Source of the DNA: Escherichia phage K1E
Sequence record: NC_007637.1
Strand: one strand, 5' to 3'
DNA: 45,251 nt
Shown: positions 1-45,251 of the stretch, in pieces
Position numbering within the stretch: position 1 is the first letter of the stretch
Layout of the letters: every line of letters begins with the position of its first letter
Notes under the pieces: model-generated
Database searches by the model: none
Told to the model about the DNA's origin: nothing
The model's input: the letters and a program-made list of their open reading frames with translations, nothing else
Translations under genes and position numbers: made by a program

Positions 1-288
1 TCTCGCCCTCGCCCTCGCCGGATTTTCCCCATATGGGGCCGCGCTGCGGTTGGCTTGGGGATTGGGCTAGGCTGGGCCGTCTTCAACCTGCTGCCGCAGG
101 AAGCTCGATGGGTTGGCTGAGGGTTGCCGAGGGCTGCGCTTAGTGGTACACAAGTAGAACGCCTAGGAAGCGCTAGGGCACGCCTTAGTGTTGGACAAGG
201 TGATTGCCTTAGTGCAACCGTTTAGGGCTTACACAGGCCGTTTTAGGGCAATTCCTGAGTGTTTGACAGGGTGTGAGGGTGTGGGCTA
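1..288. repeat. Left direct terminal repeat (288 bp)
   Basis: The first 288 nt (tctcgccctcgccctcgccggattttcccc ... gggtgtgggcta) recur at 44964..45251 with a constant offset of 44963. Begins with three CTCGCC hexamers and is GC-rich. Confidence 0.85.
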
Positions 289-359
289 TCTGTTCGTTTC
301 GCTACGCTTCACTCACTGCTCCTCACTTCGCTGTCGCTCGCTACACTGCCTGTCGTGTA

Positions 360-490
360 CCTTAGGTTATTCCTTGAGGGATGGCTTAGGTTAGCCTTAG
401 TGGGCTACCTTAGTTAAAGCCTTAGTGCTTAGCTTAGTATCAACTTAGTAGTGTACCTTAGTTAGTCTTAGTGCCAGACCTTAGTGATTG
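360..490. repeat. Array of about 10 short CTTAG(T/G) repeats just inside the left terminal repeat
   Basis: CCTTAGT/CTTAGG units at roughly 361, 385, 395, 408, 420, 433, 444, 457, 467 and 478, spaced 10-13 bp. Two more copies lie inside the repeat (183, 206) and three near the right repeat (about 44797-44838). Confidence 0.6.
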
Positions 491-714
491 CATAGCTAAA
501 GCTATAAGATGCAATTAGGTCGCGGTCGGTAGACCGCTGAGAGTAGGTAATAGTGATAAGATGCAGTAGGAGGAACACCAGAAACCTAGCCATCCTAGCC
601 TATCCTAGCTCTGTATCTATTGCTTTCCTTAGTCTCACATGTTAGACAACCTAGGTTTATCTTAGTAGTTGTGACATGTATCACATAAATAATCTATCTT
701 AGTTAAATTTAGTG

Positions 715-743
715 TTGACACAGGCAATCAACAGATATACATT
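715..743 (+). promoter_or_regulatory. Candidate host sigma-70 early promoter
   Basis: Perfect -35 TTGACA at 715..720, then a 16-17 nt spacer and ATACAT/TACATT as -10; followed by an inverted repeat ctgagacgg...ctgtctcag (about 752..780). Upstream of the first early ORFs. Confidence 0.3.
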
Positions 744-884
744 AGCAATCACTGAGACGGACCTAGCAAGCTGTCTCAGGTTATAAGTAGGAGAATTGAT
801 GCGTAGGCCGTAGCTAGCGGATGTAGTCGCATGAAGGCTTGAGCAAGGGGCCGTTTAATACCTTCTTCCTCTGGAGACAAAGCT

Positions 885-915
885 TATAACATTGCTCTTT
901 AACAATTTGCTTAGT
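885..915 (+). promoter_or_regulatory. Early-region repeated element, copy 1 (core GCTCTTTAACAAT, 894..906)
   Basis: One of four copies of a conserved 13-14 nt core lying between early genes; candidate RNA processing or regulatory site. Confidence 0.35.
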
Positions 916-964
916 GTAACCTATGTATGCCGTGGTTAATTACTTATTGAATGAGGAATTAACT

Positions 965-1060
965 ATGAATTATGAAGAAATGTATGAAGTCTATTTCGAC
1001 TCATTAGATGAAGGCGAAGAAGCATTATCCTACGCTGAGTTTGTGGAGGCTTTATCATGA
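965..1060 (+). CDS. Hypothetical small acidic early protein (31 aa)
   Basis: ATG 965 with GAGGA 6 nt upstream; stop TGA 1058..1060 overlaps the next ATG (ATGA). Not in the track because it is under 60 aa. Confidence 0.3.
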   Translation: MNYEEMYEVYFDSLDEGEEALSYAEFVEALS

Positions 1061-1242
1061 TTCTGAATAACCGTGAACTGTCCGTTCTCTTCACTCTGTT
1101 ATGCTACATGATTCGTAATAACGAATTACTTACAGATGACGAGATGGCACTATATCACCGCTTTCTTAACGAAGGTTGGACAGATACAGTTAACCAGAAA
1201 CGTGACTTGATGAAGGAGTTAAGTAATGATTCAGTTGACTGA
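1057..1242 (+). CDS. Hypothetical early protein (61 aa)
   Basis: Track ORF starting at an ATG; coupled to the upstream ORF by an ATGA overlap. Confidence 0.4.
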   Translation: MILNNRELSVLFTLLCYMIRNNELLTDDEMALYHRFLNEGWTDTVNQKRDLMKELSNDSVD

Positions 1243-1381
1243 AGACCAACTAAAGCAACTCTTAGTCGACGCGTGGTTTGCTGGTCATGAAACCTCGCAA
1301 TACACGCCTAACTCTTACGGTGATGCTAACAGATATGCACGCTCTACATTAAAGGAGGTTAAAGAGGATGTATCAGCATGA
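1226..1381 (+). CDS. Hypothetical early protein (51 aa)
   Basis: ATG 1226 (aggagttaagtaATG), stop TGA 1379..1381; overlaps both neighbours; found by manual translation. Confidence 0.3.
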   Translation: MIQLTEDQLKQLLVDAWFAGHETSQYTPNSYGDANRYARSTLKEVKEDVSA

Positions 1382-1592
1382 GGTTTTCTTCGAATCAGCT
1401 AGTGAAGCTATCCGCTTCCATGATGATATGATGCAAGCTGGCGTAGGTGTTGATGTGTATCACTATTTGATAGATTACGACACTGAATATCACCGAGTTA
1501 CCTTAGTATCTGAGTATGACAACCAAGTCATTACTGAGTATCTAGGTAGTGAAGATTATGATTACGATGAAGTAATCACAACAAATCTCTAA
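1368..1592 (+). CDS. Hypothetical acidic early protein (74 aa)
   Basis: Track ORF with ATG start and AAGGAGG upstream (1352..1358). Confidence 0.45.
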   Translation: MYQHEVFFESASEAIRFHDDMMQAGVGVDVYHYLIDYDTEYHRVTLVSEYDNQVITEYLGSEDYDYDEVITTNL

Positions 1593-1654
1593 ATTAACTA
1601 TTGACAGCCACGGCATACAAGGCTACATTAAGCATCAAGACGGCGACGTCTTTA

Positions 1655-1698
1655 AACATCCCGCTCTTTAACAATCTGGCTAGTGCCTTGGTAGGCTA
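1655..1698 (+). promoter_or_regulatory. Early-region repeated element, copy 2 (core GCTCTTTAACAAT, 1663..1675)
   Basis: Core followed by ctggctagtgccttggtaggc, which resembles the dyad arm of copies 3 and 4. Confidence 0.35.
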
Positions 1699-1718
1699 AC
1701 TACTTACTAAGGTGAACT

Positions 1719-1931
1719 ATGAACTACTGCGACATCGCTCACGAATTACGCATGGAACGTGAGAAACAAGAGAAGCGGATTATCAAGAAGATGGCTGTAC
1801 TGCTTGCACACTATAAGGCAGACAAACAGCCAACACATGATGAGTTCGTGGACTTCTGTAACATGTATCTTAATGTGAGTAAGGCCACTGGTTACAGATG
1901 GCTTAAAGCACTGAATGATGGAGAATTGTAG
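1719..1931 (+). CDS. Hypothetical early protein (70 aa)
   Basis: ATG 1719 preceded by AAGGTGAACT; this same ribosome-binding context recurs at 2031 and 7406. Confidence 0.5.
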   Translation: MNYCDIAHELRMEREKQEKRIIKKMAVLLAHYKADKQPTHDEFVDFCNMYLNVSKATGYRWLKALNDGEL

Positions 1932-1936
1932 CAATA

Positions 1937-2007
1937 AGCCAGCTTAATAGCTGGCCTATCAAGGCACTAACCTAGCTCTTTAACAATCCGGTTTGTGTCT
2001 TGATAGG
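1937..2007 (+). promoter_or_regulatory. Early-region repeated element, copy 3: hairpin plus 13-bp dyad around core GCTCTTTAACAAT (1975..1987)
   Basis: Hairpin gccagc-ttaata-gctggc (1938..1955), then arms cctatcaaggcac (1955..1967) and gtgtcttgatagg (1995..2007) enclosing the core. Confidence 0.4.
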
Positions 2008-2030
2008 CTTACTAACAAAGGTGAACTATC

Positions 2031-2195
2031 ATGACTAACGCACAACGTAAACGCTATGATGCATTGCAAGAGAAACTTGCTGTTGCTTATGCCGCTTGGC
2101 AAGCTAACACAGACAAGAGCAAACACGATAAACTTTATAGTAAAGTGGTTGCAATTAATGCTAAAATAGATAAACTTGTGAATAGTATCTTATAA
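2031..2195 (+). CDS. Hypothetical early protein (54 aa)
   Basis: ATG 2031 with AAAGGTGAACT upstream; stop TAA 2193..2195; found by manual translation. Confidence 0.45.
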   Translation: MTNAQRKRYDALQEKLAVAYAAWQANTDKSKHDKLYSKVVAINAKIDKLVNSIL

Positions 2196-2206
2196 GATAG
2201 TTGCTG

Positions 2207-2272
2207 GCACTAGCCAGCCTATCAAGGCACAAGCCACGCTCTTTTAACAATATGGGTAGTCGCTTCTTAGTC
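2207..2272 (+). promoter_or_regulatory. Early-region repeated element, copy 4 (core GCTCTTTTAACAAT, 2237..2250)
   Basis: Hairpin gctggc-acta-gccagc, arm cctatcaaggcac, the core, then an imperfect partner arm gtctggatagg. Confidence 0.35.
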
Positions 2273-2345
2273 TGGATAGGTTAAACCTAGGGTATTCTTT
2301 TGAGTGCCCTATAATGTAACCTAACTAACTAATGAGGATTAAATC

Positions 2346-2672
2346 ATGGAACGCAATGCTAACGCTTACTACAATCTTCTGGCTGCAACTGTTGAAGCAT
2401 TCAACGAGCGCATTCAGTACGATGAGATCCGCGAAGGTGATGATTACTCTGATGCACTACATGAGGTTGTAGACAGCAATGTTCCAGTTTATTACAGCGA
2501 AATCTTTACTGTGATGGCTGCTGATGGCATTGATATTGAATTTGAGGATGCAGGTTTGATTCCTGATACGAAGGATGTAACCAAGATTCTACAAGCTCGC
2601 ATCTATGAGTCTCTTTATAATGATGTACCAAATGATAGTGATGTAGTTTGGTATGAAGACGAGGAAGAATAA
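2346..2672 (+). CDS. Ocr-like acidic protein (candidate DNA-mimic anti-restriction protein, 108 aa)
   Basis: Very acidic protein. The stretch IQYDEIREGDDYSDALHEVVDSNVPVYYSEIFTVMAADGIDIEFEDAGLIPDTKDVTKILQARIYESL closely parallels T7 gp0.3 (Ocr) as I remember it; needs alignment to confirm. Confidence 0.6.
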   Translation: MERNANAYYNLLAATVEAFNERIQYDEIREGDDYSDALHEVVDSNVPVYYSEIFTVMAADGIDIEFEDAGLIPDTKDVTKILQARIYESLYNDVPNDSDVVWYEDEEE

Positions 2673-2674
2673 AG

Positions 2675-2788
2675 ATGGAAAGGCAATATAACTTCATCTT
2701 CTCAGACGGTGTAACCCTGAAATGTTCCTTACGATTTGCGCAGATTCGTGAGGAAGTGCTAGGTACTACATACAAACTATTTAGCTGA
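2675..2788 (+). CDS. Hypothetical small protein (37 aa)
   Basis: ATG 2675 just after the upstream stop; weak evidence; its 3' end overlaps a promoter-like sequence. Confidence 0.2.
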   Translation: MERQYNFIFSDGVTLKCSLRFAQIREEVLGTTYKLFS

Positions 2789-2801
2789 CACTATAAGAGA
2801 A
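2779..2801 (+). promoter_or_regulatory. Weak SP6-type phage promoter-like sequence
   Basis: ATTTAGCTGACACTATAAGAG: two mismatches to the consensus, including A instead of G at +1. Confidence 0.35.
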
Positions 2802-2864
2802 GGCTTAACAAGGCGTTGCTACGGTAGCGCCTGATTAAACTTTCACTTACTAGGAGTTAAGACT

Positions 2865-3092
2865 ATGGATTTAGATAGCATCATTATGGCATTTGCTCTT
2901 ATTGGCTTAAGCTGGTGCTCCTATCACCTTTACCGTGAGTTCTTATTTGATAAAGCTAAACGCAAACTAAGAAAGGAAGGCGGTAACTACCTCTGTGTAA
3001 GAGGCGGTTTAGTCGAATATATTGCACCTAACGGCACGGAATGCGCCATTAACAAAGATGCATTTATAGAAACGTGGCATTACATCAAGTAA
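2865..3092 (+). CDS. Hypothetical small membrane protein (75 aa)
   Basis: ATG 2865 with TAGGAG upstream; hydrophobic N-terminal segment IIMAFALIGLSWCSY. Confidence 0.45.
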   Translation: MDLDSIIMAFALIGLSWCSYHLYREFLFDKAKRKLRKEGGNYLCVRGGLVEYIAPNGTECAINKDAFIETWHYIK

Positions 3093-3155
3093 CTAGCCTA
3101 TAGCCTGCCTGTGTGGGCTATGTGATATTTACTTACACTATATAAGGTGACTATT

Positions 3156-4040
3156 ATGACTACTGAAAACACCCTTCTGTCTGTTCGTGAAGCTGCAACC
3201 GCTGAAATCAAGCAGCACTTAGACAATATCGGCACTTCTTACATCAAAGTTGGCGCTTGTCTGAATGAATTACGCGGTGATTTCGAAGGTCAAAAAGACT
3301 TTTTAGCTTATGTAGAATCAGAGTTCGGCATCAAGAAGGCACAATGCTACAAGCTGATGAGTGTAGCCCGTGTCTTTGAAGGAGACGAACGCTTTAAAGG
3401 TGTGGCTATGCGTGTAATGCTGGCGCTTGTTCCTTTCGCTGATGAAAATATAATCATGGAGAAGGCCGCAGAACTCGCCGCAGATGGCAAGCTGGACACT
3501 AACGCCGTAAACGCCCTGATTGAGACTAAGAAAGAGATAAAGGCCGAAACGGTACAATCTAAGGCTGAGGCAGTAAAACCGCAGGAGAACGCGACTGAGG
3601 CCGCAGAATCACAGGAAATGCAAGCGCCGCAGGTAGTGCCACCCGCGAGCGAGCAGGAGGCCGACGAATCAGCACCATGGGAAGAGGAAAGCAAGCCGGA
3701 AGCGCCAAAGGCAGCGCCGCTGGATAACACGGCTAATACCGAAAACGCCGCTATGGCTAGCCTCTTAGCACAAATTAAGGCACTGACTGAGCAATTACAG
3801 GCAGCTAATGACCGCATCGCCTCCTTAAGTAGCGCACGCGAAAGCAAGAAGGCAGCCGCACCTATGCTGCCGCAATTCAAATCTTCCTGCTTCTATGCTC
3901 GCTTAGGGTTAAGCGCTGAGGAGGCAACGAAGAAAACAGCAGTTAACAAGGCGCGCCGCGAACTGGTTAAGCTAGGCTACGGTGAAGGACATGAAGCATG
4001 GCCCTTAATCTCTGAGGCAGTAGAAGAGTTGACTAAGTAA
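3156..4040 (+). CDS. Hypothetical early protein (294 aa) with acidic Pro/Glu/Ala-rich linker
   Basis: Track ORF starts at GTG 3147; first ATG is 3156 with AAGGTGA upstream. GC-rich low-complexity middle (about 3540..3720); sits immediately upstream of the RNA polymerase gene. Confidence 0.55.
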   Translation: MTTENTLLSVREAATAEIKQHLDNIGTSYIKVGACLNELRGDFEGQKDFLAYVESEFGIKKAQCYKLMSVARVFEGDERFKGVAMRVMLALVPFADENIIMEKAAELAADGKLDTNAVNALIETKKEIKAETVQSKAEAVKPQENATEAAESQEMQAPQVVPPASEQEADESAPWEEESKPEAPKAAPLDNTANTENAAMASLLAQIKALTEQLQAANDRIASLSSARESKKAAAPMLPQFKSSCFYARLGLSAEEATKKTAVNKARRELVKLGYGEGHEAWPLISEAVEELTK

Positions 4041-4103
4041 CCTTATCGGTGGCATCTCCTTAGGTGTCACCTATTAAGGTTTCTTTCACTAGGAGTAAAC
4101 AAG

Positions 4104-6731
4104 ATGCAAGACCTACACGCTATTCAACTTCAACTTGAAGAAGAAATGTTTAACGGCGGCATCCGTCGCTTTGAAGCGGACCAACAACGCCAGATTGCAT
4201 CCGGTAATGAATCAGACACGGCATGGAATCGCCGCTTATTGTCCGAACTAATCGCACCTATGGCGGAAGGTATTCAGGCTTACAAGGAAGAATACGAAGG
4301 CAAGAGAGGTCGTGCACCACGTGCATTAGCTTTCATTAACTGCGTAGGAAACGAAGTGGCAGCATATATCACCATGAAAATCGTTATGGATATGCTGAAT
4401 ACAGACGTTACCTTACAAGCTATCGCTATGAATGTAGCAGACCGCATCGAGGACCAAGTACGTTTTAGCAAGCTGGAAGGTCACGCAGCTAAGTACTTTG
4501 AGAAAGTGAAGAAGTCGCTTAAGGCTAGCAAGACTAAATCTTATCGTCATGCGCACAACGTAGCGGTAGTAGCTGAGAAATCTGTTGCTGACCGTGACGC
4601 GGATTTCTCCCGTTGGGAGGCATGGCCTAAAGACACCTTGCTGCAAATCGGTATGACCTTGCTCGAAATATTGGAGAATAGTGTATTCTTCAATGGTCAA
4701 CCTGTCTTCCTTCGTACCTTGCGCACTAACGGCGGAAAGCATGGTGTTTACTATTTACAGACCAGTGAACATGTTGGCGAGTGGATAACTGCATTTAAGG
4801 AACATGTAGCGCAGCTCAGCCCTGCCTATGCACCTTGCGTTATACCTCCCCGCCCTTGGGTATCACCTTTTAACGGTGGGTTTCATACTGAGAAAGTAGC
4901 AAGCCGTATTCGTCTGGTAAAAGGCAATCGTGAGCACGTCCGCAAGCTGACCAAAAAGCAAATGCCAGCCGTTTATAAGGCTGTTAACGCTTTGCAGGCA
5001 ACTAAGTGGCAGGTTAATAAAGAGGTTTTACAGGTTGTGGAGGACGTTATACGTCTAGACCTCGGCTATGGTGTACCTTCCTTTAAACCACTCATCGACC
5101 GTGAGAACAAGCCAGCTAATCCGGTGCCGTTAGAGTTCCAGCACCTGCGAGGCCGTGAACTGAAAGAAATGTTAACACCGGAACAATGGCAAGCCTTCAT
5201 CAACTGGAAAGGTGAATGCACCAAGCTGTATACCGCTGAGACTAAGCGCGGCAGCAAATCGGCGGCGACCGTCCGCATGGTAGGGCAGGCCCGTAAATAC
5301 AGCCAATTTGACGCAATATACTTCGTGTATGCTCTGGACAGCCGCAGCCGCGTCTACGCGCAATCTAGCACGCTCTCTCCGCAATCAAACGACTTAGGCA
5401 AGGCATTGCTCCGTTTTACCGAAGGGCAGCGTCTTGATAGCGCTGAGGCGCTTAAGTGGTTTTTGGTGAACGGGGCTAATAACTGGGGTTGGGATAAGAA
5501 AACTTTTGACGTGCGCACCGCTAACGTGCTGGATAGTGAATTTCAAGACATGTGCCGCGACATTGCAGCGGATCCGCTGACCTTCACTCAATGGGTAAAT
5601 GCCGACTCCCCTTACGGCTTCCTTGCATGGTGCTTTGAATATGCGCGTTATCTGGATGCACTGGATGAAGGCACGCAAGACCAATTCATGACGCACCTCC
5701 CAGTCCATCAAGATGGTAGTTGTTCTGGTATCCAGCACTACAGTGCTATGCTACGCGATGCAGTAGGTGCGAAAGCAGTAAACCTTAAGCCCTCTGACTC
5801 TCCTCAAGATATTTATGGTGCCGTTGCGCAGGTAGTAATTCAGAAGAATTATGCATACATGAATGCAGAGGATGCGGAAACCTTCACTTCTGGCAGCGTG
5901 ACTTTAACAGGTGCGGAACTGCGTAGTATGGCTAGTGCGTGGGATATGATAGGAATCACTCGCGGCCTGACCAAAAAGCCCGTAATGACACTACCTTATG
6001 GCAGCACACGTCTAACCTGCCGTGAGTCAGTGATTGATTATATCGTTGATTTAGAAGAAAAAGAGGCCCAACGGGCTATTGCGGAAGGGCGTACCGCCAA
6101 TCCTGTACACCCTTTTGATAATGACCGTAAAGACAGCCTGACACCTAGCGCAGCTTATAACTATATGACAGCTTTAATCTGGCCTTCTATCTCGGAAGTG
6201 GTTAAAGCCCCTATAGTGGCAATGAAAATGATTCGTCAGCTTGCACGTTTCGCAGCTAAAAGAAACGAAGGCTTAGAATATCCCTTACCAACTGGCTTCA
6301 TCTTGCAACAAAAGATAATGGCTACCGATATGCTCCGCGTATCCACTTGCTTGATGGGTGAAATCAAGATGAGTCTCCAGATTGAAACAGATGTAGTTGA
6401 TGAAACGGCAATGATGGGTGCGGCTGCTCCTAACTTCGTCCATGGTCACGATGCTAGCCACCTGATTCTGACTGTATGTGACCTAGTGGATAAAGGTATT
6501 ACATCCGTTGCAGTCATCCATGATTCTTTCGGTACTCATGCAGGACGTACCGCAGACCTGCGGGATAGCTTAAGGGAAGAAATGGTTAAGATGTATCAAA
6601 ACCATAATGCCCTGCAAAACCTGCTAGATGTGCACGAAGAGCGTTGGTTAGTAGACACCGGAATCCAAGTACCAGAGCAAGGGGAGTTTGACCTTAACGA
6701 AATCTTAGTTTCAGACTATTGTTTCGCATAA
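4104..6731 (+). CDS. Single-subunit DNA-dependent RNA polymerase (T7/SP6 type, 875 aa)
   Basis: AGGAG RBS; motifs [19 protein letters not shown] and C-terminal ...DYCFA parallel T7 RNAP ([19 protein letters not shown], ...FAFA). Confidence 0.95.
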
Positions 6732-6804
6732 TATTAATAGGCCATTCCTTCGGGAGTGGCTTTCTTTTACCTACTACCTGTAACATTTCATTAACATAAA
6801 ACGT

Positions 6805-6820
6805 GTCTCACATGTGAGAC
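6805..6820. repeat. Palindromic hairpin GTCTCACATGTGAGAC, copy A
   Basis: Perfect 16-bp palindrome followed by TTTATTT, immediately upstream of the promoter at 6824. Confidence 0.7.
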
Positions 6821-6823
6821 TTT

Positions 6824-6846
6824 ATTTACCGGACACTATAGGATAG
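6824..6846 (+). promoter_or_regulatory. SP6-type phage promoter (+1 G at 6841)
   Basis: ATTTACCGGACACTATAGGATAG; the transcript would begin with hairpin ccgtc-gga-gacgg. Confidence 0.75.
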
Positions 6847-6986
6847 CCGTCGGAGACGGGAAAGAAAGGGAAGATAAAGGATATAAAGGAAGTAATAGGT
6901 ATTAAAGGTTATATAGGTTATCTAGGAATACCTATTACCTTCTTCCTTCCTCTTATTACCACTTAGAGGAAGGGCAGACCTAGGTT
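6847..6986. promoter_or_regulatory. Candidate primary replication origin: AT/purine-rich dyad region between two phage promoters
   Basis: Purine-rich run, then 11-bp inverted repeat taataggtatt (6893..6903) / aatacctatta (6927..6937), then a pyrimidine-rich run. Position matches the T7 primary origin, just downstream of gene 1. Confidence 0.4.
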
Positions 6987-7002
6987 GTCTCACATGTGAG
7001 AC
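6987..7002. repeat. Palindromic hairpin GTCTCACATGTGAGAC, copy B
   Basis: Perfect 16-bp palindrome, immediately upstream of the promoter at 7008. Confidence 0.7.
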
Positions 7003-7007
7003 TTCGT

Positions 7008-7030
7008 ATTTACCGGACAGTATAGATAAG
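7008..7030 (+). promoter_or_regulatory. SP6-type phage promoter (+1 G at 7025)
   Basis: ATTTACCGGACAGTATAGATAAG; one mismatch in the core. Confidence 0.65.
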
Positions 7031-7055
7031 ATTAACTCACTTTGGAGATTTAACC

Positions 7056-7184
7056 ATGCGTAACTTTGAGAAGATGACCCGTAAAGCTAACCGTTTTGAC
7101 ATGGAAGAAGGGCAGAAGAAAGGCAAGAAGCTGAATAAACCTGTCCGTGACCGTGCATCTAAACGCGCAGCGTGGGAGTTCTAA
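7056..7184 (+). CDS. Hypothetical small basic protein (42 aa)
   Basis: ATG 7056 with GGAGA upstream; stop TAA 7182..7184; found by manual translation. Confidence 0.4.
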   Translation: MRNFEKMTRKANRFDMEEGQKKGKKLNKPVRDRASKRAAWEF

Positions 7185-7187
7185 GTT

Positions 7188-7406
7188 ATGGCTAAATACA
7201 GAATCAAGACCTGTTTAAATAGTCACGGGCAAGAGTGTTACATAGTGCAACGTAAAGTATTAGGCTTAATATGGGTCACATGTATGATGCCTATTGGATA
7301 TACTGATACAGAGGCTATCTTCTGCACCGAAAGGGATGCAAAGCAGTTTATCTCTAAGCGTAGAAAAGCTGACTCTTATCAACCCAGAACTATTAAGGTG
7401 AACTAA
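7188..7406 (+). CDS. Hypothetical protein (72 aa)
   Basis: Track ORF; its stop overlaps the primase ATG (TAATG). Confidence 0.45.
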   Translation: MAKYRIKTCLNSHGQECYIVQRKVLGLIWVTCMMPIGYTDTEAIFCTERDAKQFISKRRKADSYQPRTIKVN

Positions 7407-9394
7407 TGGCTATTATTAATAACATCCCGTGTCCTGCTTGTCAGAAGAATGGACACGATAAATCCGGCAACCACCTCATGATATTTGATGATGGTGCTGG
7501 CTATTGCAACCGTGGTCACTTCCATGATAATGGCAAGCCCTACTATCACAAGCCAGAGGGTGGCATCGAGATAACCGAATTGCCTATTACTGGCAATATC
7601 AAATATACACCTTCTCAATTCAAAGAGATGGAGAAGGAAGGGAAGATAAGCGACCCTAAGTTGCGCGCCATCGCACTTGGTGGTATGCGTATGAAAGACC
7701 GTTGGGAGGTCATGAATGAGCAAGAAAGGGCAGACCAAGAAGCAGAGTGGAAACTTGATGTTGAATGGTTCCTCACGCTTAAGCGTAAGAACCTTGTGTC
7801 CCGTCACATTCGAGGTGACATCGCAGCAATGTACGATGTGCGCGTTGGACACGATGAAGAGGGAAGAGTCAACCGTCACTATTATCCACGATATGAAAAG
7901 GGTGTGCTTGTTGGAGCAAAATGCCGGACGTTGCCGAAGGATTTTAAGTTCGGACACCTAGGTAAACTCTTTGGTATGCAAGACCTTTTCGGTATGAATA
8001 CTTTGTCTCACGTGTTAGACAAGGGAAGACGAAAGGATTGCTTGCTTATTGTGGGCGGCGAACTGGATGCACTAGCAGCACAGCAAATGCTCCTTGATTC
8101 TGCCAAGGGTACTAAGTGGGAAGGCCAGCCTTACCATGTATGGTCTGCCAATAAAGGTGAGTCTTGCCTTGAAGAGATAGTGCAAAACCGTGAGCACATA
8201 GCCCAATTCAAGAAGATTATATGGGGCTTTGATGGCGACGAGGTGGGGCAGAAGCAGAACCAACAAGCTGCTCGCCTGTTTCCTGGCAAATCCTACATCC
8301 TCGAATATCCCTCTGGTTGCAAAGATGCTAACAAGGCATTGATGGCTGGCAAGGCTAAAGAGTTTGTTGATGCTTGGTTTAATGCCAAGTCATCTGATGA
8401 AGTCTTTGGTAGCCAGATTAAATCTATCGCATCTCAAAGGGATAAGCTCAAGGCTGCACGTCCAGAGCAAGGACTATCATGGCCTTGGCCTAAGCTGAAC
8501 AAGGTAACGCTAGGTATTCGTAAGAACCAGCTTATCATTGTAGGTGCAGGCTCTGGTGTAGGTAAGACTGAGTTCCTTCGTGAAGTAGTTAAGCACCTCA
8601 TTGAAGAACACGGTGAATCTGTAGGCATCATTTCTACAGAAGACCCGATGGTCAAGGTGTCCCGTGCTTTTATCGGCAAGTGGATTGATAAGCGTATTGA
8701 GTTACCGCCAACCAACGACCCGAAAGAAGACGGATACCGTGAGGTGTTCGACTACACCGAGGAAGAAGCTAACGCTGCCATTGATTATGTGGCTGATACA
8801 GGAAAGTTATTTGTGGCTGACCTAGAAGGCGACTATTCTATGGAGAAGGTAGAGCAAACTTGCCTAGAGTTTGAGGCTATGGGCATTTCTAATATCATCA
8901 TTGATAACTTAACGGGGATTAAATTAGATGAGCGTGCTTTTGGTGGGAAGGTTGGTGCACTTGATGAATGCGTCAAACGAATTGGTACTATCAAAGACCG
9001 ACATGCGGTTACGATTTTCCTTGTCTCTCACCTTACACGTCCTCCGGCAAACCGTACCCAACACGAAGAAGGTGGCGAAGTTATCCTTTCTGACTTCCGA
9101 GGCTCAGGCGCTATCGGATTCTGGGCATCTTACGCCTTGGGGATTGAGCGTAATACAAGAGCTGAAACGCTTGACGAAAGGACTACCACGTACATCTCAT
9201 GTGTCAAAGACCGCGACCAAGGTATCTGGACTGGAACCAAGGTCATGCTTAAGGGTGACATTCAAACCGGACGTTTAATGGAACCACAAGCCCGTACTAA
9301 GTCATTTGATACAGGTGAAGCAAGGCAACAAGAAGTGCCGGATTTACCGGACACTATAGAAGAGACAACCTTTGACGATGAACAGGAGTTTTAA
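7406..9394 (+). CDS. DNA primase/helicase (T7 gp4-like, 662 aa)
   Basis: N-terminal Cys4 zinc ribbon (CPACQKNGHD...CNRGH), Walker A GAGSGVGKTEF, acidic C-terminus ...FDDEQEF ending in Phe as in T7 gp4. Confidence 0.9.
   Translation: MAIINNIPCPACQKNGHDKSGNHLMIFDDGAGYCNRGHFHDNGKPYYHKPEGGIEITELPITGNIKYTPSQFKEMEKEGKISDPKLRAIALGGMRMKDRWEVMNEQERADQEAEWKLDVEWFLTLKRKNLVSRHIRGDIAAMYDVRVGHDEEGRVNRHYYPRYEKGVLVGAKCRTLPKDFKFGHLGKLFGMQDLFGMNTLSHVLDKGRRKDCLLIVGGELDALAAQQMLLDSAKGTKWEGQPYHVWSANKGESCLEEIVQNREHIAQFKKIIWGFDGDEVGQKQNQQAARLFPGKSYILEYPSGCKDANKALMAGKAKEFVDAWFNAKSSDEVFGSQIKSIASQRDKLKAARPEQGLSWPWPKLNKVTLGIRKNQLIIVGAGSGVGKTEFLREVVKHLIEEHGESVGIISTEDPMVKVSRAFIGKWIDKRIELPPTNDPKEDGYREVFDYTEEEANAAIDYVADTGKLFVADLEGDYSMEKVEQTCLEFEAMGISNIIIDNLTGIKLDERAFGGKVGALDECVKRIGTIKDRHAVTIFLVSHLTRPPANRTQHEEGGEVILSDFRGSGAIGFWASYALGIERNTRAETLDERTTTYISCVKDRDQGIWTGTKVMLKGDIQTGRLMEPQARTKSFDTGEARQQEVPDLPDTIEETTFDDEQEF
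9342..9364 (+). promoter_or_regulatory. SP6-type phage promoter inside the 3' end of the primase/helicase gene (+1 G at 9359)
   Basis: ATTTACCGGACACTATAGAAGAG; perfect core. Confidence 0.7.
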
Positions 9395-9555
9395 TGGAAA
9401 TTATTAAACCAGTATTGAATATCGGTATTGAGATCCTATTCATGCTTGTGATCGCAGATTATGCTGCACGATATGGATTCAAGAAAGCTGTGAAACTTAT
9501 CGTTGCATCTGGTTTTCTTATGTCAATGTTCTTTATTGTAACACGCCTTATCTAG
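9394..9555 (+). CDS. Hypothetical small membrane protein (53 aa)
   Basis: ATG overlaps the primase stop (TAATG); AGGAG 5 nt upstream; two hydrophobic segments; found by manual translation. Confidence 0.45.
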   Translation: MEIIKPVLNIGIEILFMLVIADYAARYGFKKAVKLIVASGFLMSMFFIVTRLI

Positions 9556-11109: not shown

Positions 11110-13642
11110 TTGGAAGAAGGAAGCAGAAGGCCGCATCTTAGTGATGGATTCTGAGGCTAAAGGCCTGCTGGATGCTATCCGATATGGCCACCGCGAAGAT
11201 GTGCACATCATTTGCTGCATGGATTTGCTTACTACAGAGGAGTTCCTCTTCTTTGACCCATACGAGATGCGTGACCCTGAAGCAAGAGAACGCCTAAAAG
11301 AATGGGAAGGCCATCAAGATGGAACATTGGTTGACGGTGTTAACTTCCTTAAACACTGCGAAGCCATCGTCTCACAGAACTTCCTAGGGTACGACGGCCT
11401 TCTATTTGAGAAAGCATTCCCTGATATCTGGAAAGGCTTTAACTATACCGAGAGACGCGGCAAGGGCAGACTCCGCGCTGACCTGTGTCCGGTACGCGTC
11501 ATGGATACGCTGGTCATGAGTCGCCTGTTAAACCCCGATAGACGCCTCCCTCCGCAAGCATACGCCAAAGGCATGGGTAACGTAGCCCCTCACTCAATTG
11601 AGGCGCACGGCATTCGTATAGGCCGTTATAAGCCGGAGAACGAGGATTGGTCTAAACTAACTGACCACATGGTACATCGTGTACGCGAGGACGTGGCGAT
11701 AGGCCGTGACCTATTCCTCTGGCTATTTAACGGAGAATGGACGGAGCACAAACGCCGTGGCGTGAATAAACGCACTGGCCTAGGTATTGAGACAGCCTTC
11801 CACATGGAGTCCATTGTGGCGCTGGAGATGAGCCGTCAGGCCGAGCGTGGATTCCGTCTGGATATAGATAAAGCATTAGCACGATGCGAGGAATTGGACG
11901 CTAAGATTGATGAGACAGTCGCAGCGTTCCGTCCGCACATGCCTATGCGTATCAAGTCTAAACCTTTTAAACCGGAAGAAAAGAATGAAGTATGCCAACG
12001 CGCAAATGAGTATGGAGCTAGCAACAATATACCTACTGTCCTTGACCCCTCTCACTTTCTTCACGCAGAGAGACGAGGAGATCGCAAGACAGTATGGAGT
12101 GTCACTACTAAGTCTGGTGATTGGTCGGCTAGCGTCAAGAAAGACTTTCCTCACCTTAGAGGAAACCGTAATGACACGCCAAGCATCAAGTGGATTGGCG
12201 CTTACTCGCCTGTTACTTTCGAAGAGATTCCCTTGGGTAACAGGGATACAGTTAAGCAAGTGCTCTATGATTATGGATGGAAAGGTGTTGAATTTAACGA
12301 TACCGAGCAAGCGCATCTCGATGAGCATGGCGTATTACCCAAGCCTTGGAGTGGGAAGATAAATGAAAAGTCCCTTACTTTATGGCAAGAGAGAGCCGCA
12401 CGTGAAGGTAAAACAGTCCCTGATTGGTGCTTGGGTATCGCTGCATGGTACATACTCGTATCCCGTCGTGGTCAGATCCTCAACCGTGGTGACGTTGAAG
12501 CCTTCGACCAGAAGGGGGTGTGGCCTTCGCAAGCTGGTATACGAAAGTGTCGCGGCCTTGTACCTGTAGCATTTAACAAGGAGTTAGGAATCAATGCGCA
12601 GCAATACTACGAAAGGTACGGATGCTGGCCTACGTCAGACAAGGATGACGGAGAATGGCGTGTGCCAGCTATTGCTATTAGTATTGGAACTTCTACGTTC
12701 CGTATGCGTCATCGTAACGTGGTTAATATTCCTGCCCGTGGTTTGTATCCTTTACGTGATTTATTCATAGCCGGTAAAGGTAAGCTAATCCTTGGTTGTG
12801 ATGGTGCTGGTCTTGAACTACGTGTACTGTCTCACTTCATGAATGACCCTGAATATCAAGATATTGTACTGCATGGTGACATTCACACCCATAATCAAAT
12901 GAAGGCTGGTCTTCCTAAGCGTGACATGGCGAAGACATTTATATATGCCTTCCTATATGGGTCTGGTATAGCTAACCTTGCAGCAGTATGTGGTGTTACT
13001 GAGGAAGAAATGGAGGAAGTTGTGGCAAGATTTGAGGTTGAACTACCATCTCTTGCACGTCTTCGTGAGAATGTTATCGCACAAGGTAACAAGTTTGGCT
13101 ACCTACAAGCACCTGATGGTCATTGGGGTCGCATCCGTATGTCTGGTGGTGAACTTAAAGAGCACACTATGCTTAACGTACTACTCCAGATGACTGGTTC
13201 TCTGTGTATGAAATACGCATTGGTCAGAGCGTTTGCAGTGATGCGCAAGGAAGGTGTGGCCTTAGATAGCATGGGAAACCCTTGCGGTATAGCTAACGTG
13301 CACGATGAAATCCAGATGGAAGTCCCTGAAGATGAGGTCTTGTATCTCAACTACGACTTGCCTTTCACCTTAGAAGGGTTCGAAACAGAGAAGGCTGCTG
13401 TGAAAGCAGTGTTCGATGCAGAGGAGAAACGTGTTCATGTGGATTCTGAAGGACGTATGTGGTCTGCTGCAAATCTCGTTAGCGTTGATGCTGATGCTGG
13501 TGTACTTCATTGCCAGCGTCGCTATCACCGTGCAGGGCATATCATTGCCGACGCAATGACTTGGGCGGGTCAGTATCTGAAGATGCGTTGTCCGATGGCA
13601 GGTGAGTATAAGATTGGTGCAAGTTGGAAGGAAACACACTGA
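11096..13642 (+). CDS. DNA polymerase, family A (848 aa)
   Basis: Track ORF trimmed to ATG 11096 (GGAG upstream). Exonuclease motif VMDSEAKG, motif A CDGAGLELRVL, motif B RDMAKTFIYAFLYG, motif C VHDEIQ. Confidence 0.9.
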   Translation: MKSIDWKKEAEGRILVMDSEAKGLLDAIRYGHREDVHIICCMDLLTTEEFLFFDPYEMRDPEARERLKEWEGHQDGTLVDGVNFLKHCEAIVSQNFLGYDGLLFEKAFPDIWKGFNYTERRGKGRLRADLCPVRVMDTLVMSRLLNPDRRLPPQAYAKGMGNVAPHSIEAHGIRIGRYKPENEDWSKLTDHMVHRVREDVAIGRDLFLWLFNGEWTEHKRRGVNKRTGLGIETAFHMESIVALEMSRQAERGFRLDIDKALARCEELDAKIDETVAAFRPHMPMRIKSKPFKPEEKNEVCQRANEYGASNNIPTVLDPSHFLHAERRGDRKTVWSVTTKSGDWSASVKKDFPHLRGNRNDTPSIKWIGAYSPVTFEEIPLGNRDTVKQVLYDYGWKGVEFNDTEQAHLDEHGVLPKPWSGKINEKSLTLWQERAAREGKTVPDWCLGIAAWYILVSRRGQILNRGDVEAFDQKGVWPSQAGIRKCRGLVPVAFNKELGINAQQYYERYGCWPTSDKDDGEWRVPAIAISIGTSTFRMRHRNVVNIPARGLYPLRDLFIAGKGKLILGCDGAGLELRVLSHFMNDPEYQDIVLHGDIHTHNQMKAGLPKRDMAKTFIYAFLYGSGIANLAAVCGVTEEEMEEVVARFEVELPSLARLRENVIAQGNKFGYLQAPDGHWGRIRMSGGELKEHTMLNVLLQMTGSLCMKYALVRAFAVMRKEGVALDSMGNPCGIANVHDEIQMEVPEDEVLYLNYDLPFTLEGFETEKAAVKAVFDAEEKRVHVDSEGRMWSAANLVSVDADAGVLHCQRRYHRAGHIIADAMTWAGQYLKMRCPMAGEYKIGASWKETH

Positions 13643-44963: not shown

Positions 44964-45251
44964 TCTCGCCCTCGCCCTCGCCGGATTTTCCCCATATGGG
45001 GCCGCGCTGCGGTTGGCTTGGGGATTGGGCTAGGCTGGGCCGTCTTCAACCTGCTGCCGCAGGAAGCTCGATGGGTTGGCTGAGGGTTGCCGAGGGCTGC
45101 GCTTAGTGGTACACAAGTAGAACGCCTAGGAAGCGCTAGGGCACGCCTTAGTGTTGGACAAGGTGATTGCCTTAGTGCAACCGTTTAGGGCTTACACAGG
45201 CCGTTTTAGGGCAATTCCTGAGTGTTTGACAGGGTGTGAGGGTGTGGGCTA
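44964..45251. repeat. Right direct terminal repeat (288 bp)
   Basis: Copy of 1..288 running to the last base of the window; matched by eye over the visible stretches. Confidence 0.85.

Follow-up and report, generated by a model that had tools for sequence, protein, structure and literature searches.

Serial rRNA-type boxA sequences and predicted gene-bracketing RNA helices in the early region of Escherichia phage K1E

The early region of Escherichia phage K1E contains a series of short elements that, judged by their sequence, are boxA sites of the ribosomal RNA (rRNA) operon (rrn) type, that is, the NusB/NusE site of the host rRNA anti-termination complex, and predicted long-range RNA helices running from one boxA to the next enclose the early genes. 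The window analyzed here is the whole of record NC_007637.1, at its full length of 45,251 nucleotides (nt), and Table 1 collects its features. A first-pass annotation of this DNA had described four copies of a structured element between early genes, with a layout resembling T7 early-region RNase III processing sites, and had named host-polymerase regulatory sites as a fallback idea. The fallback has fared well: the core is the Escherichia coli rrn boxA, and phage T7 carries the same sequence past its promoter A3. We think it rather probable that these boxAs load the host Nus complex, that the helices are leader-trailer-like and probably RNase III substrates, and that a boxA reloads the complex after each of them.

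Sequence comparison revealed that copies 1 to 3 (GCTCTTTAACAAT) are identical at 13 of 13 nt to the E. coli rrnH leader boxA (TGCTCTTTAACAATTTATC). The boxA consensus for gamma-proteobacteria is GYTCTTTAANA (PMC5725501), and boxA RNA, the binding site of NusB/NusE, is both required and enough for nucleation of the rRNA anti-termination complex (PMC10250234). Beyond 894, 1663, and 1975, no exact copy of GCTCTTTAACAAT occurs on either strand of the whole window; by simple arithmetic, the chance expectation for an exact 13-mer is ~0.001 per 90 kb. The looser consensus has three matches on the two strands of the 45-kb window versus 0.28 expected, a number reached in 1 of 100 shuffles, and all three are confined to 1.1 kb. 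Moreover, all copies lie on the plus strand, preceded by sigma-70-like promoters and followed by the phage RNA polymerase gene, and the distance from the end of boxA to the start codon is 43 nt for boxA2 and boxA3 and 58 nt for boxA1. The first three cores lie where the first-pass annotation had placed them (894-906, 1663-1675, and 1975-1987), while the fourth belongs at 2238-2251, one base to the right of 2237-2250. Only the first three share the core exactly; the fourth is the variant GCTCTTTTAACAAT, which fails the consensus because of an inserted T.

The sequences that follow the boxAs complete the pattern. The comparison set comprised 20 IMG/VR loci with a polymerase N-terminus 75-100% identical to that of K1E, upstream regions included, plus the window, for a total of 21 phages, and a partner scan tested each boxA 3' flank against all downstream sequence by duplex prediction. 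The ~25-30 nt past one boxA proved complementary to a segment 45-75 nt upstream of the next. The best partner lay directly before the next boxA in 34 of 36 inter-boxA intervals and further upstream in the other two, with predicted energies of about -37 to -55 kcal/mol versus -25 to -33 for the next-best partner and helix lengths of 22-30 bp.

For K1E itself, the scan yields helices A, B1, and B2, which are the top inverted repeats of the region. Their 5' strands begin 1-4 nt past a boxA, and their 3' strands stop 2-8 nt short of the next one. Because the strands adjoin successive boxAs, each helix would loop out one to four early genes, leaving boxA as a short single-stranded linker between successive helices. 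Helix A is present as such in the minimum free energy (MFE) and centroid folds of a 1466-nt transcript; in the same folds, 1678-1702 pairs with 2211-2235, with the dyad around copy 3 nested inside. The 3' strand of helix A spans the spacer and -10 element of the predicted promoter P2 and ends at the inferred P2 start site, so that it is contained only in read-through RNA from the upstream promoter, P1. A promoter within the 3' strand, in a different sequence, recurs in the relatives L021 and L023, in Klebsiella phage VLCpiA2b, and in Pseudomonas phage Njord. A possible extension of helix A across the -35 bulge (TTAATT/AATTAA) was 78.7% paired with zero compensatory changes, and we do not claim it.

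Conservation among the relatives is pronounced. When matches with at most one mismatch or the extra T were counted, each of the 20 relatives had 2-3 boxAs and the window had 4, for a total of 57, and all 57 were sense-strand sites that precede the RNA polymerase gene by 1580-3450 nt. Outside the early region, a single one-mismatch boxA match was found across the 21 phages. The helices are conserved as pairings. The class B helix (13 sequences) had 93.7% of its cells paired and 4 compensatory pairs, and none of 500 shuffles reached its covariation score. The class A main helix (18 sequences) was 95.3% paired, with a UA/AU swap (10 versus 7 sequences) that divides Vectrevirus-like from SP6-like phages. 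L021 and L023 carry class A helices of wholly different sequence; MAFFT gave no register for the divergent helices L021_1 and L023_2, which were judged singly by duplex prediction.

A broader set of 16 instances anchored on GATAGG/CCTATC, distant phages included, was 92.6% paired versus 74.9% when shuffled. For the helices in general, the percentage paired is inflated, to the disadvantage of our interpretation, by the fact that instances were found partly through a search for complementarity. Controls with slid partners were only 30-44% paired, and compensatory changes were seen at 16 of 22 pairs (score 0.556 versus 0.197). Selection for complementarity does not explain the positional regularity, the slid-partner controls, or the many distinct arm sequences. 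Among non-Watson-Crick cells, G.U outnumbers A.C (43 versus 10), which points to selection on the sense transcript rather than on its complement or the DNA. Sequence identity, position, conservation, and covariation at the RNA level are matters of observation, and an enclosing helix backed by covariation, as in a leader-trailer arrangement, is what was found. These patterns indicate that the long-range helices are selected RNA structures, and that the chain of covarying helices, unlike the local dyad at copy 3, is the conserved feature.

In T7, early processing by RNase III takes place at local hairpins, and each K1E copy could in principle be a self-contained hairpin of that type with the core displayed in its loop, as the first-pass annotation had suggested. 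The elements do sit between early genes, like the T7 R sites. At copy 3, the 13-bp dyad that had been reported is real (cctatcaaggcac at 1955-1967 with gtgtcttgatagg at 1995-2007), and the local fold is strong, with a stem of 14+4 bp and boxA in a 17-nt loop (predicted free energy [dG] -36.4, z -5.3); a related local alternative pairs the 5' strand of helix B2 with 1954-1972 (repeat I7, 19 nt, 89% complementary). Phage T5 (L058, NC_005859) likewise has a one-mismatch boxA (GCTCTTTAAAAA, ~4977-4988, minus strand) in its pre-early region, inside a 12-bp local dyad (AAGTTTACCGCC / GGCGGTAAACTT) within the annotated 35-amino-acid (aa) open reading frame (ORF) T5.009.

The dyad claimed for copy 4, by comparison, holds only in part: the 5' arm is present at 2218-2230, and its 3' partner, gtctggatagg at 2270-2280, is only partly complementary. 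Copies 1 and 2 lack a 5' arm and have no local dyad, and the upstream flank is the only one that the 5' arm fits in SP6, L010, and others. In 34 of the 36 intervals, the 5' arm and the flank that follows its own boxA paired at no more than background (-14 to -25 kcal/mol), the exceptions being copy 3 of the window (-37.8 kcal/mol) and L021_1. With the flank of the preceding boxA, this arm pairs at -36.6 to -53.5 kcal/mol in 34 intervals. The last module, at 2251-2348, is a conserved local hairpin and could be a site of the T7 type; at the other junctions between early genes, no such local hairpin is conserved. The core, moreover, is a Nus-factor site and not an RNase III determinant. Covariance analysis, which had been proposed as a check, did reveal compensatory changes when relatives were aligned, although these fall on the long-range helices and the local dyad is not conserved. 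The 3' strand of helix B1 (1948-1972) includes the dyad arm cctatcaaggcac, and we read the copy-3 dyad as a by-product of two similar cassettes sitting in tandem. Taken together, self-contained local hairpins are a very unlikely explanation, and it is plausible, by analogy, that RNase III processing takes place at the long-range, gene-bracketing helices rather than at local ones.

Additional small structures accompany the chain. The second hairpins noted beside copies 3 and 4 were borne out, with GCCAGC/GCTGGC at 1938-1955 and, arms swapped, GCTGGC/GCCAGC at 2203-2218. In general, past each enclosed stop codon comes a small GC-rich hairpin that adjoins the 3' strand; its loop is often of the GNRA type, and its arms are swapped or variable in relatives and between cassettes. 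A stem-loop directly upstream of boxA, in the position of boxB, is found at 1637-1652, 1938-1955, and 2203-2218. It is missing from some promoter-proximal leaders of relatives, and in K1E the leader at 750-893, upstream of boxA1, folds no better than shuffles (z -1.1). The last module is built differently. For the flank of the last boxA, no long-range partner above background appeared in any of the phages scanned; the long local hairpin at 2251-2348 has a conserved AGGUU/AACCU stem and an upper hairpin with 5 compensatory pairs (15 phages).

The architecture extends beyond the comparison set. SP6 has two exact boxAs and one with a single mismatch, and K1-5 has three; in GenBank, no boxA feature is annotated for either phage. 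Klebsiella phage VLCpiA2b (Molineuxvirinae) has the boxA-helix architecture with unrelated helix sequence, in Pseudomonas phage Njord (Colwellvirinae) a bracketing helix, unrelated in sequence, comes after each of three boxAs, and Pectobacterium phage PP99 (Gajwadongvirus) has one boxA and three consecutive bracketing helices. Viral contigs were also scanned for a boxA followed by GATAGGCT. In the T5-like Pectobacterium phage My1 (L059, NC_018837), a complete unit lies at 6268-9461, where minus is the coding strand, and consists of a boxA, a 25-bp helix around gene My1_014, a hairpin, and the next boxA. The unit is located in the left terminal repeat, which is the pre-early, first-step-transfer region, and the boxAs of My1 (two exact and two with one mismatch) are all on the coding strand. 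Because it is present in T5-like My1 too, the unit behaves as a mobile early-gene cassette of regions that are transcribed first by host polymerase. Matches to the scan pattern in L040, L041, and L057 (two large contigs and one of 35 kb) lacked the hairpins and partners and are likely due to chance. Separately, the 42.5-kb contig L038 (IMGVR_UViG_2706795200) has two promoter-proximal boxAs at 11753-11990, and the flank of the first one (TGTATCCTT...) shows complementarity to the -10 element and spacer of the next promoter, as in helix A.

This mobility raises the question of whether the junctions are mainly DNA-level recombination linkers that shuffle early-gene cassettes, with the RNA role secondary. 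A megablast search with 600-2400 matched 106 phage records, mostly Vectrevirus, but the alignments are broken into 2-6 pieces and account for 44-82% of the query, so that the early region is a mosaic. The same slot houses at least six different cassettes, 212-385 nt long and each with its own matched arms, and the cassette type recurs in the unrelated T5-like phage, which shares its host genus with PP99. There is also a precedent in the PeSL elements of T4-type phages, promoter and stem-loop junctions that flank small variable early ORFs and show modular shuffling, although these lack a boxA and covarying long-range arms and were proposed to act at the DNA level (PMC2839356, PMC4122927). Nevertheless, the identity to the rrn boxA, the absolute strand bias, the excess of G.U over A.C, and the compensatory arm changes speak for selection on sense RNA, and recombination between inverted arms would invert genes, not move them. 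As the principal function, recombination is therefore quite unlikely; as a secondary role, it is likely.

Comparison with known systems places the K1E elements closest to the rRNA operons. In rrn, the order past the promoter is boxB-boxA-boxC, the strand of the leader-trailer helix starts ~5 nt past boxA, and a second set lies upstream of the 23S gene (PMC10250234). The phage units share with rrn an identical boxA, a small hairpin upstream of it, the 5' strand of a long-range helix a few nt after it, a helix of RNase III-substrate size that encloses the product RNA, and a further boxA past the 3' strand. They differ in that the loops are protein-coding genes of 0.2-0.7 kb, in that up to four units stand in series, and in that one 3' strand doubles as a sigma-70 promoter.

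The same 12-mer occurs in phage T7 at nt 813, past promoter A3 and ahead of gene 0.3; the T7 boxA is described as an anti-termination element, with mutations that make T7 Gp2 dispensable (PMC3709561, citing Savalia 2010). Elements of this class have thus been on record in a related phage. The T7 order of boxA, local hairpin, and ocr/0.3 is that of the last K1E module. T7 has a single boxA, for which no long-range partner was found, whereas the K1E group has 2-4 boxAs and gene-bracketing helices. The lambda nut sites likewise place a host Nus-factor boxA on phage early transcripts, but the lambda boxA is a weaker variant followed by an N-binding boxB, while that of K1E is the full rrn version with its hairpin upstream rather than downstream. 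No N-like protein was found among the PHROG matches of the early ORFs.

Consensus boxAs also precede other non-rRNA transcripts, namely, in the suhB 5' untranslated region (UTR) (PMC5725501) and, reportedly, in CRISPR array leaders (PMC7665894). These are single sites without a chain of bracketing helices, and the suhB site is repressive. By extension, the phage boxAs might be negative elements: a Nus complex 43-58 nt before the start codons might repress translation or trigger Rho, or multicopy boxA RNA might titrate Nus factors away from the host rrn operons. BoxA-dependent repression of suhB is on record, and the spacings of 43 and 58 nt are near the 50-nt window of Baniulyte et al. (PMC5725501). 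We nevertheless regard a negative role as highly improbable, given that the T7 boxA is described as an anti-terminator and that repressing the first anti-defense and takeover genes seems counterproductive.

By analogy with rrn, we infer Nus binding, anti-termination, looping, cleavage, and reloading in the following sequence. Each boxA would recruit NusB/NusE and then NusG, NusA, and SuhB, yielding a fast host polymerase that resists Rho and pausing, which is what boxA is known to do at rrn operons, and transcription by this Nus-modified complex would extend across the early genes as far as the gene for the phage RNA polymerase. A boxA tethered to the polymerase would keep the neighboring 5' strand close to the RNA exit channel, and the long-range helix would form cotranscriptionally once the 3' strand emerges, as has been proposed for the rRNA leader-trailer helix. 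RNase III would then cut the helices, releasing stable gene-sized mRNAs from the polycistronic early RNA. Such cleavage would detach the upstream boxA from the nascent chain, and the boxA directly after each 3' strand would reload the complex, like the rrn spacer boxA. Reloading would account for both the multiple copies of boxA and their exact positions. According to recent work, the assembled rrn anti-termination complex makes elongation twice as fast and suppresses both pausing and termination by Rho; by bridging the 5' and 3' ends, it also strongly raises cotranscriptional RNase III processing (bioRxiv 10.64898/2026.03.17.712431).

The nuclease step is where this proposal meets its most substantial competitor. 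The helices may work without RNase III, protecting the RNA from RNase E or exonucleases, hiding Rho-loading RNA, or tuning translation, and boxA may be an anti-terminator only. Conservation and covariation are silent on the nuclease, a GC hairpin follows each stop codon, and the ribosome-binding site is sequestered in the last module, all of which would suit a protective or translational role. Conversely, regular helices of 22-30 bp lie in the RNase III substrate size range, and RNase III cuts the nearest analogues in architecture, namely, the leader-trailer helices of rrn and the early sites of T7. On balance, helices that act without RNase III seem unlikely, if worth taking seriously.

Several observations weigh against a chain of boxAs that reload the Nus complex at helices cut by RNase III. 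First, the boxA consensus is broken in copy 4 of the K1E window. The insertion, within a run of four T, could be a degenerate site or a homopolymer sequencing error, and the canonical core stands at this site, with the same flanks, in the close relatives L008 and L005, the latter matching K1E exactly in its RNA polymerase N-terminus. Second, the rrn boxC (UCUGUGUGGG, 18-19 nt downstream of boxA) is absent from the phage flanks, which are of the UAGUGYCUUGRUAGG type or other and share with boxC only the role of 5' strand of a long helix. Third, T7 gets by with one boxA although RNase III cuts its RNA several times, and the argument for reloading is the weaker for it. Fourth, some junctions at which a helix gives way to the next helix or to a gene lack a boxA (L023 at 1000-1075, PP99 [L026] at 1080-1160 and 1400-1470, and L025 at 3387-3402), so that boxA is not obligatory for helix formation or reloading. 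Finally, the RNA in the loops differs from rRNA in being translated; its looping may be hindered by ribosomes, which already shield translated early RNA from Rho.

The genomic setting is consistent with early transcription by the host. A 288-bp exact direct terminal repeat at the ends of the window (1-288 and 44964-45251) identifies it as a complete linear phage genome of 45,251 bp. The phage belongs to the Autographiviridae (Molineuxvirinae, Vectrevirus-like) and is of the SP6/K1E kind. Its first SP6-type phage promoter lies near 2781-2803, so the region to its left must be transcribed by host polymerase. Both early promoters, P1 and P2, are consensus predictions. An Rfam scan of 1-7000 at E values up to 10 found no family over the boxA elements and returned weak chance matches to microRNA, small nucleolar RNA (snoRNA), and sok families; among them, region 2781-2835 has weak microRNA-family matches on both strands.

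Other repeats and hairpins were noted in passing. The heptamer CCTTAGT has 13 plus-strand copies genome-wide, of which eight lie at 183-627 near the left end, upstream of the early promoters, and two in the right terminal repeat; the related CTTAGTG/CTAGTG opens the 5' strands of the helices. A weak terminator-like hairpin (3099-3122) follows a 75-aa ORF, and a strong one (6739-6762; AGGCCATTCCTTCGGGAGTGGCTT, then a T-run), which probably serves as the early terminator, comes directly behind the RNA polymerase gene. Just 5' of that gene, a GGTGGCA...TGTCACC hairpin at 4036-4086 accompanies the promoter-like sequence TTAGGTGTCACCTATTAAGG, and a ribosome-binding-site context is duplicated at 2834-2867 and 4073-4106.

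Table 1. Features of the K1E early region and its surroundings, in window coordinates
Feature	Position	Strand	Remarks
boxA copy 1, GCTCTTTAACAAT	894..906	+	Exact; same as rrnH leader boxA; fits GYTCTTTAANA
boxA copy 2, GCTCTTTAACAAT	1663..1675	+	Exact; ~27 nt downstream of inferred P2 start site
boxA copy 3, GCTCTTTAACAAT	1975..1987	+	Exact; single-stranded linker, helix strand 2 nt away on each side
boxA copy 4, variant with one extra T, GCTCTTTTAACAAT	2238..2251	+	Fails GYTCTTTAANA
Helix A (predicted)	908..935 (5' strand) / 1608-1634 (3' strand)	+	Duplex dG -43.8 versus -27.9 for next-best partner
Helix B1 (predicted)	1678..1702 (5' strand) / 1948..1972 (3' strand)	+	Inverted repeat I2, 25 nt, 84% complementary; covariation
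Helix B2 (predicted)	1990..2014 (5' strand) / 2211..2235 (3' strand)	+	Inverted repeat I3, 25 nt, 84% complementary; dG -47.8
GNRA-loop hairpin AAGACG-GCGA-CGUCUU	1637..1652	+	boxB-like position between P2 start site and boxA2; fold dG -7.0, z -2.6
GC hairpin GCCAGC-UUAAUA-GCUGGC	1938..1955	+	Just after stop codon, abuts helix B1 3' strand; dG -12.7, z -4.3
GC hairpin GCUGGC-ACUA-GCCAGC	2203..2218	+	Arms swapped relative to 1938-1955; dG -11.0, z -3.0
Long interrupted local hairpin	2251..2348	+	Encloses ocr ribosome-binding site and start codon; dG -37, z -5.1
Sigma-70-like early promoter P1, TTGACA-N17-TACATT	715..743	+	Consensus scan, 10/12 matches; boxA1 ~150 nt downstream
Sigma-70-like promoter P2, TTGACA-N17-TACATT	1601-1629	+	Consensus prediction; overlaps helix A 3' strand 1608-1634
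Four small early ORFs looped out by helix A	965-1060, 1057-1242, 1226-1381, 1368-1592	+	Each a PHROG family of unknown function
70-aa early ORF inside helix B1	1719..1931	+	phrog_26099
54-aa early ORF inside helix B2	2031..2195	+	phrog_16783
ocr-like anti-restriction gene	2346..2672	+	phrog_2568, E 7e-51
First SP6-type phage promoter, ATTTAGCTGACACTATAAGAGAAG	~2781-2803		Strong hairpin after it at about 2808-2835
Single-subunit phage RNA polymerase gene	4104..6731	+	ORF; tblastn to RNA polymerase genes in 2352 phage records; downstream target of host-polymerase early transcription

On a wider scale, we tentatively suggest that the early operons of SP6-like and other virulent phages may be functional mimics of rRNA operons, in which a boxA-reloaded rrn complex would act as a cotranscriptional RNA-looping chaperone, joining helix strands that lie hundreds of nt apart on either side of translated genes, coupled to RNase III excision of mRNAs, and the boxA-helix unit would double as a mobile early-gene cassette. 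This is possible rather than probable. A boxA on phage early transcripts is already known from lambda and T7, and that of SP6/K1-5 may have been noted before. A literature search found no paper linking boxA to SP6-like phages or describing serial boxAs with gene-bracketing helices, although the original SP6 and K1-5 genome papers may mention them.

BoxA-dependent modification of RNA polymerase is seen as largely dedicated to rRNA, with single-site exceptions at suhB, CRISPR leaders, lambda, and T7. The K1E system, conserved in several phage lineages, instead has two to four full-strength boxAs in series, each joined to a covarying helix around a protein-coding gene. If our interpretation is correct, this would be the first use of the folding and processing function of the rrn transcription anti-termination complex on messenger RNA, and it would explain the rapid, uninterrupted expression of the first anti-defense genes and the phage RNA polymerase. 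The system would then offer a small, genetically tractable test bed, with loops of 200-800 nt and a plaque phenotype, in which one could address whether RNA tethering promotes long-range helices, whether RNase III releases the complex, and why rrn needs a second boxA. It would also provide a recognizable junction for annotating and engineering early-gene cassettes. These findings should interest specialists in anti-termination, RNA processing, and the early development of phages.

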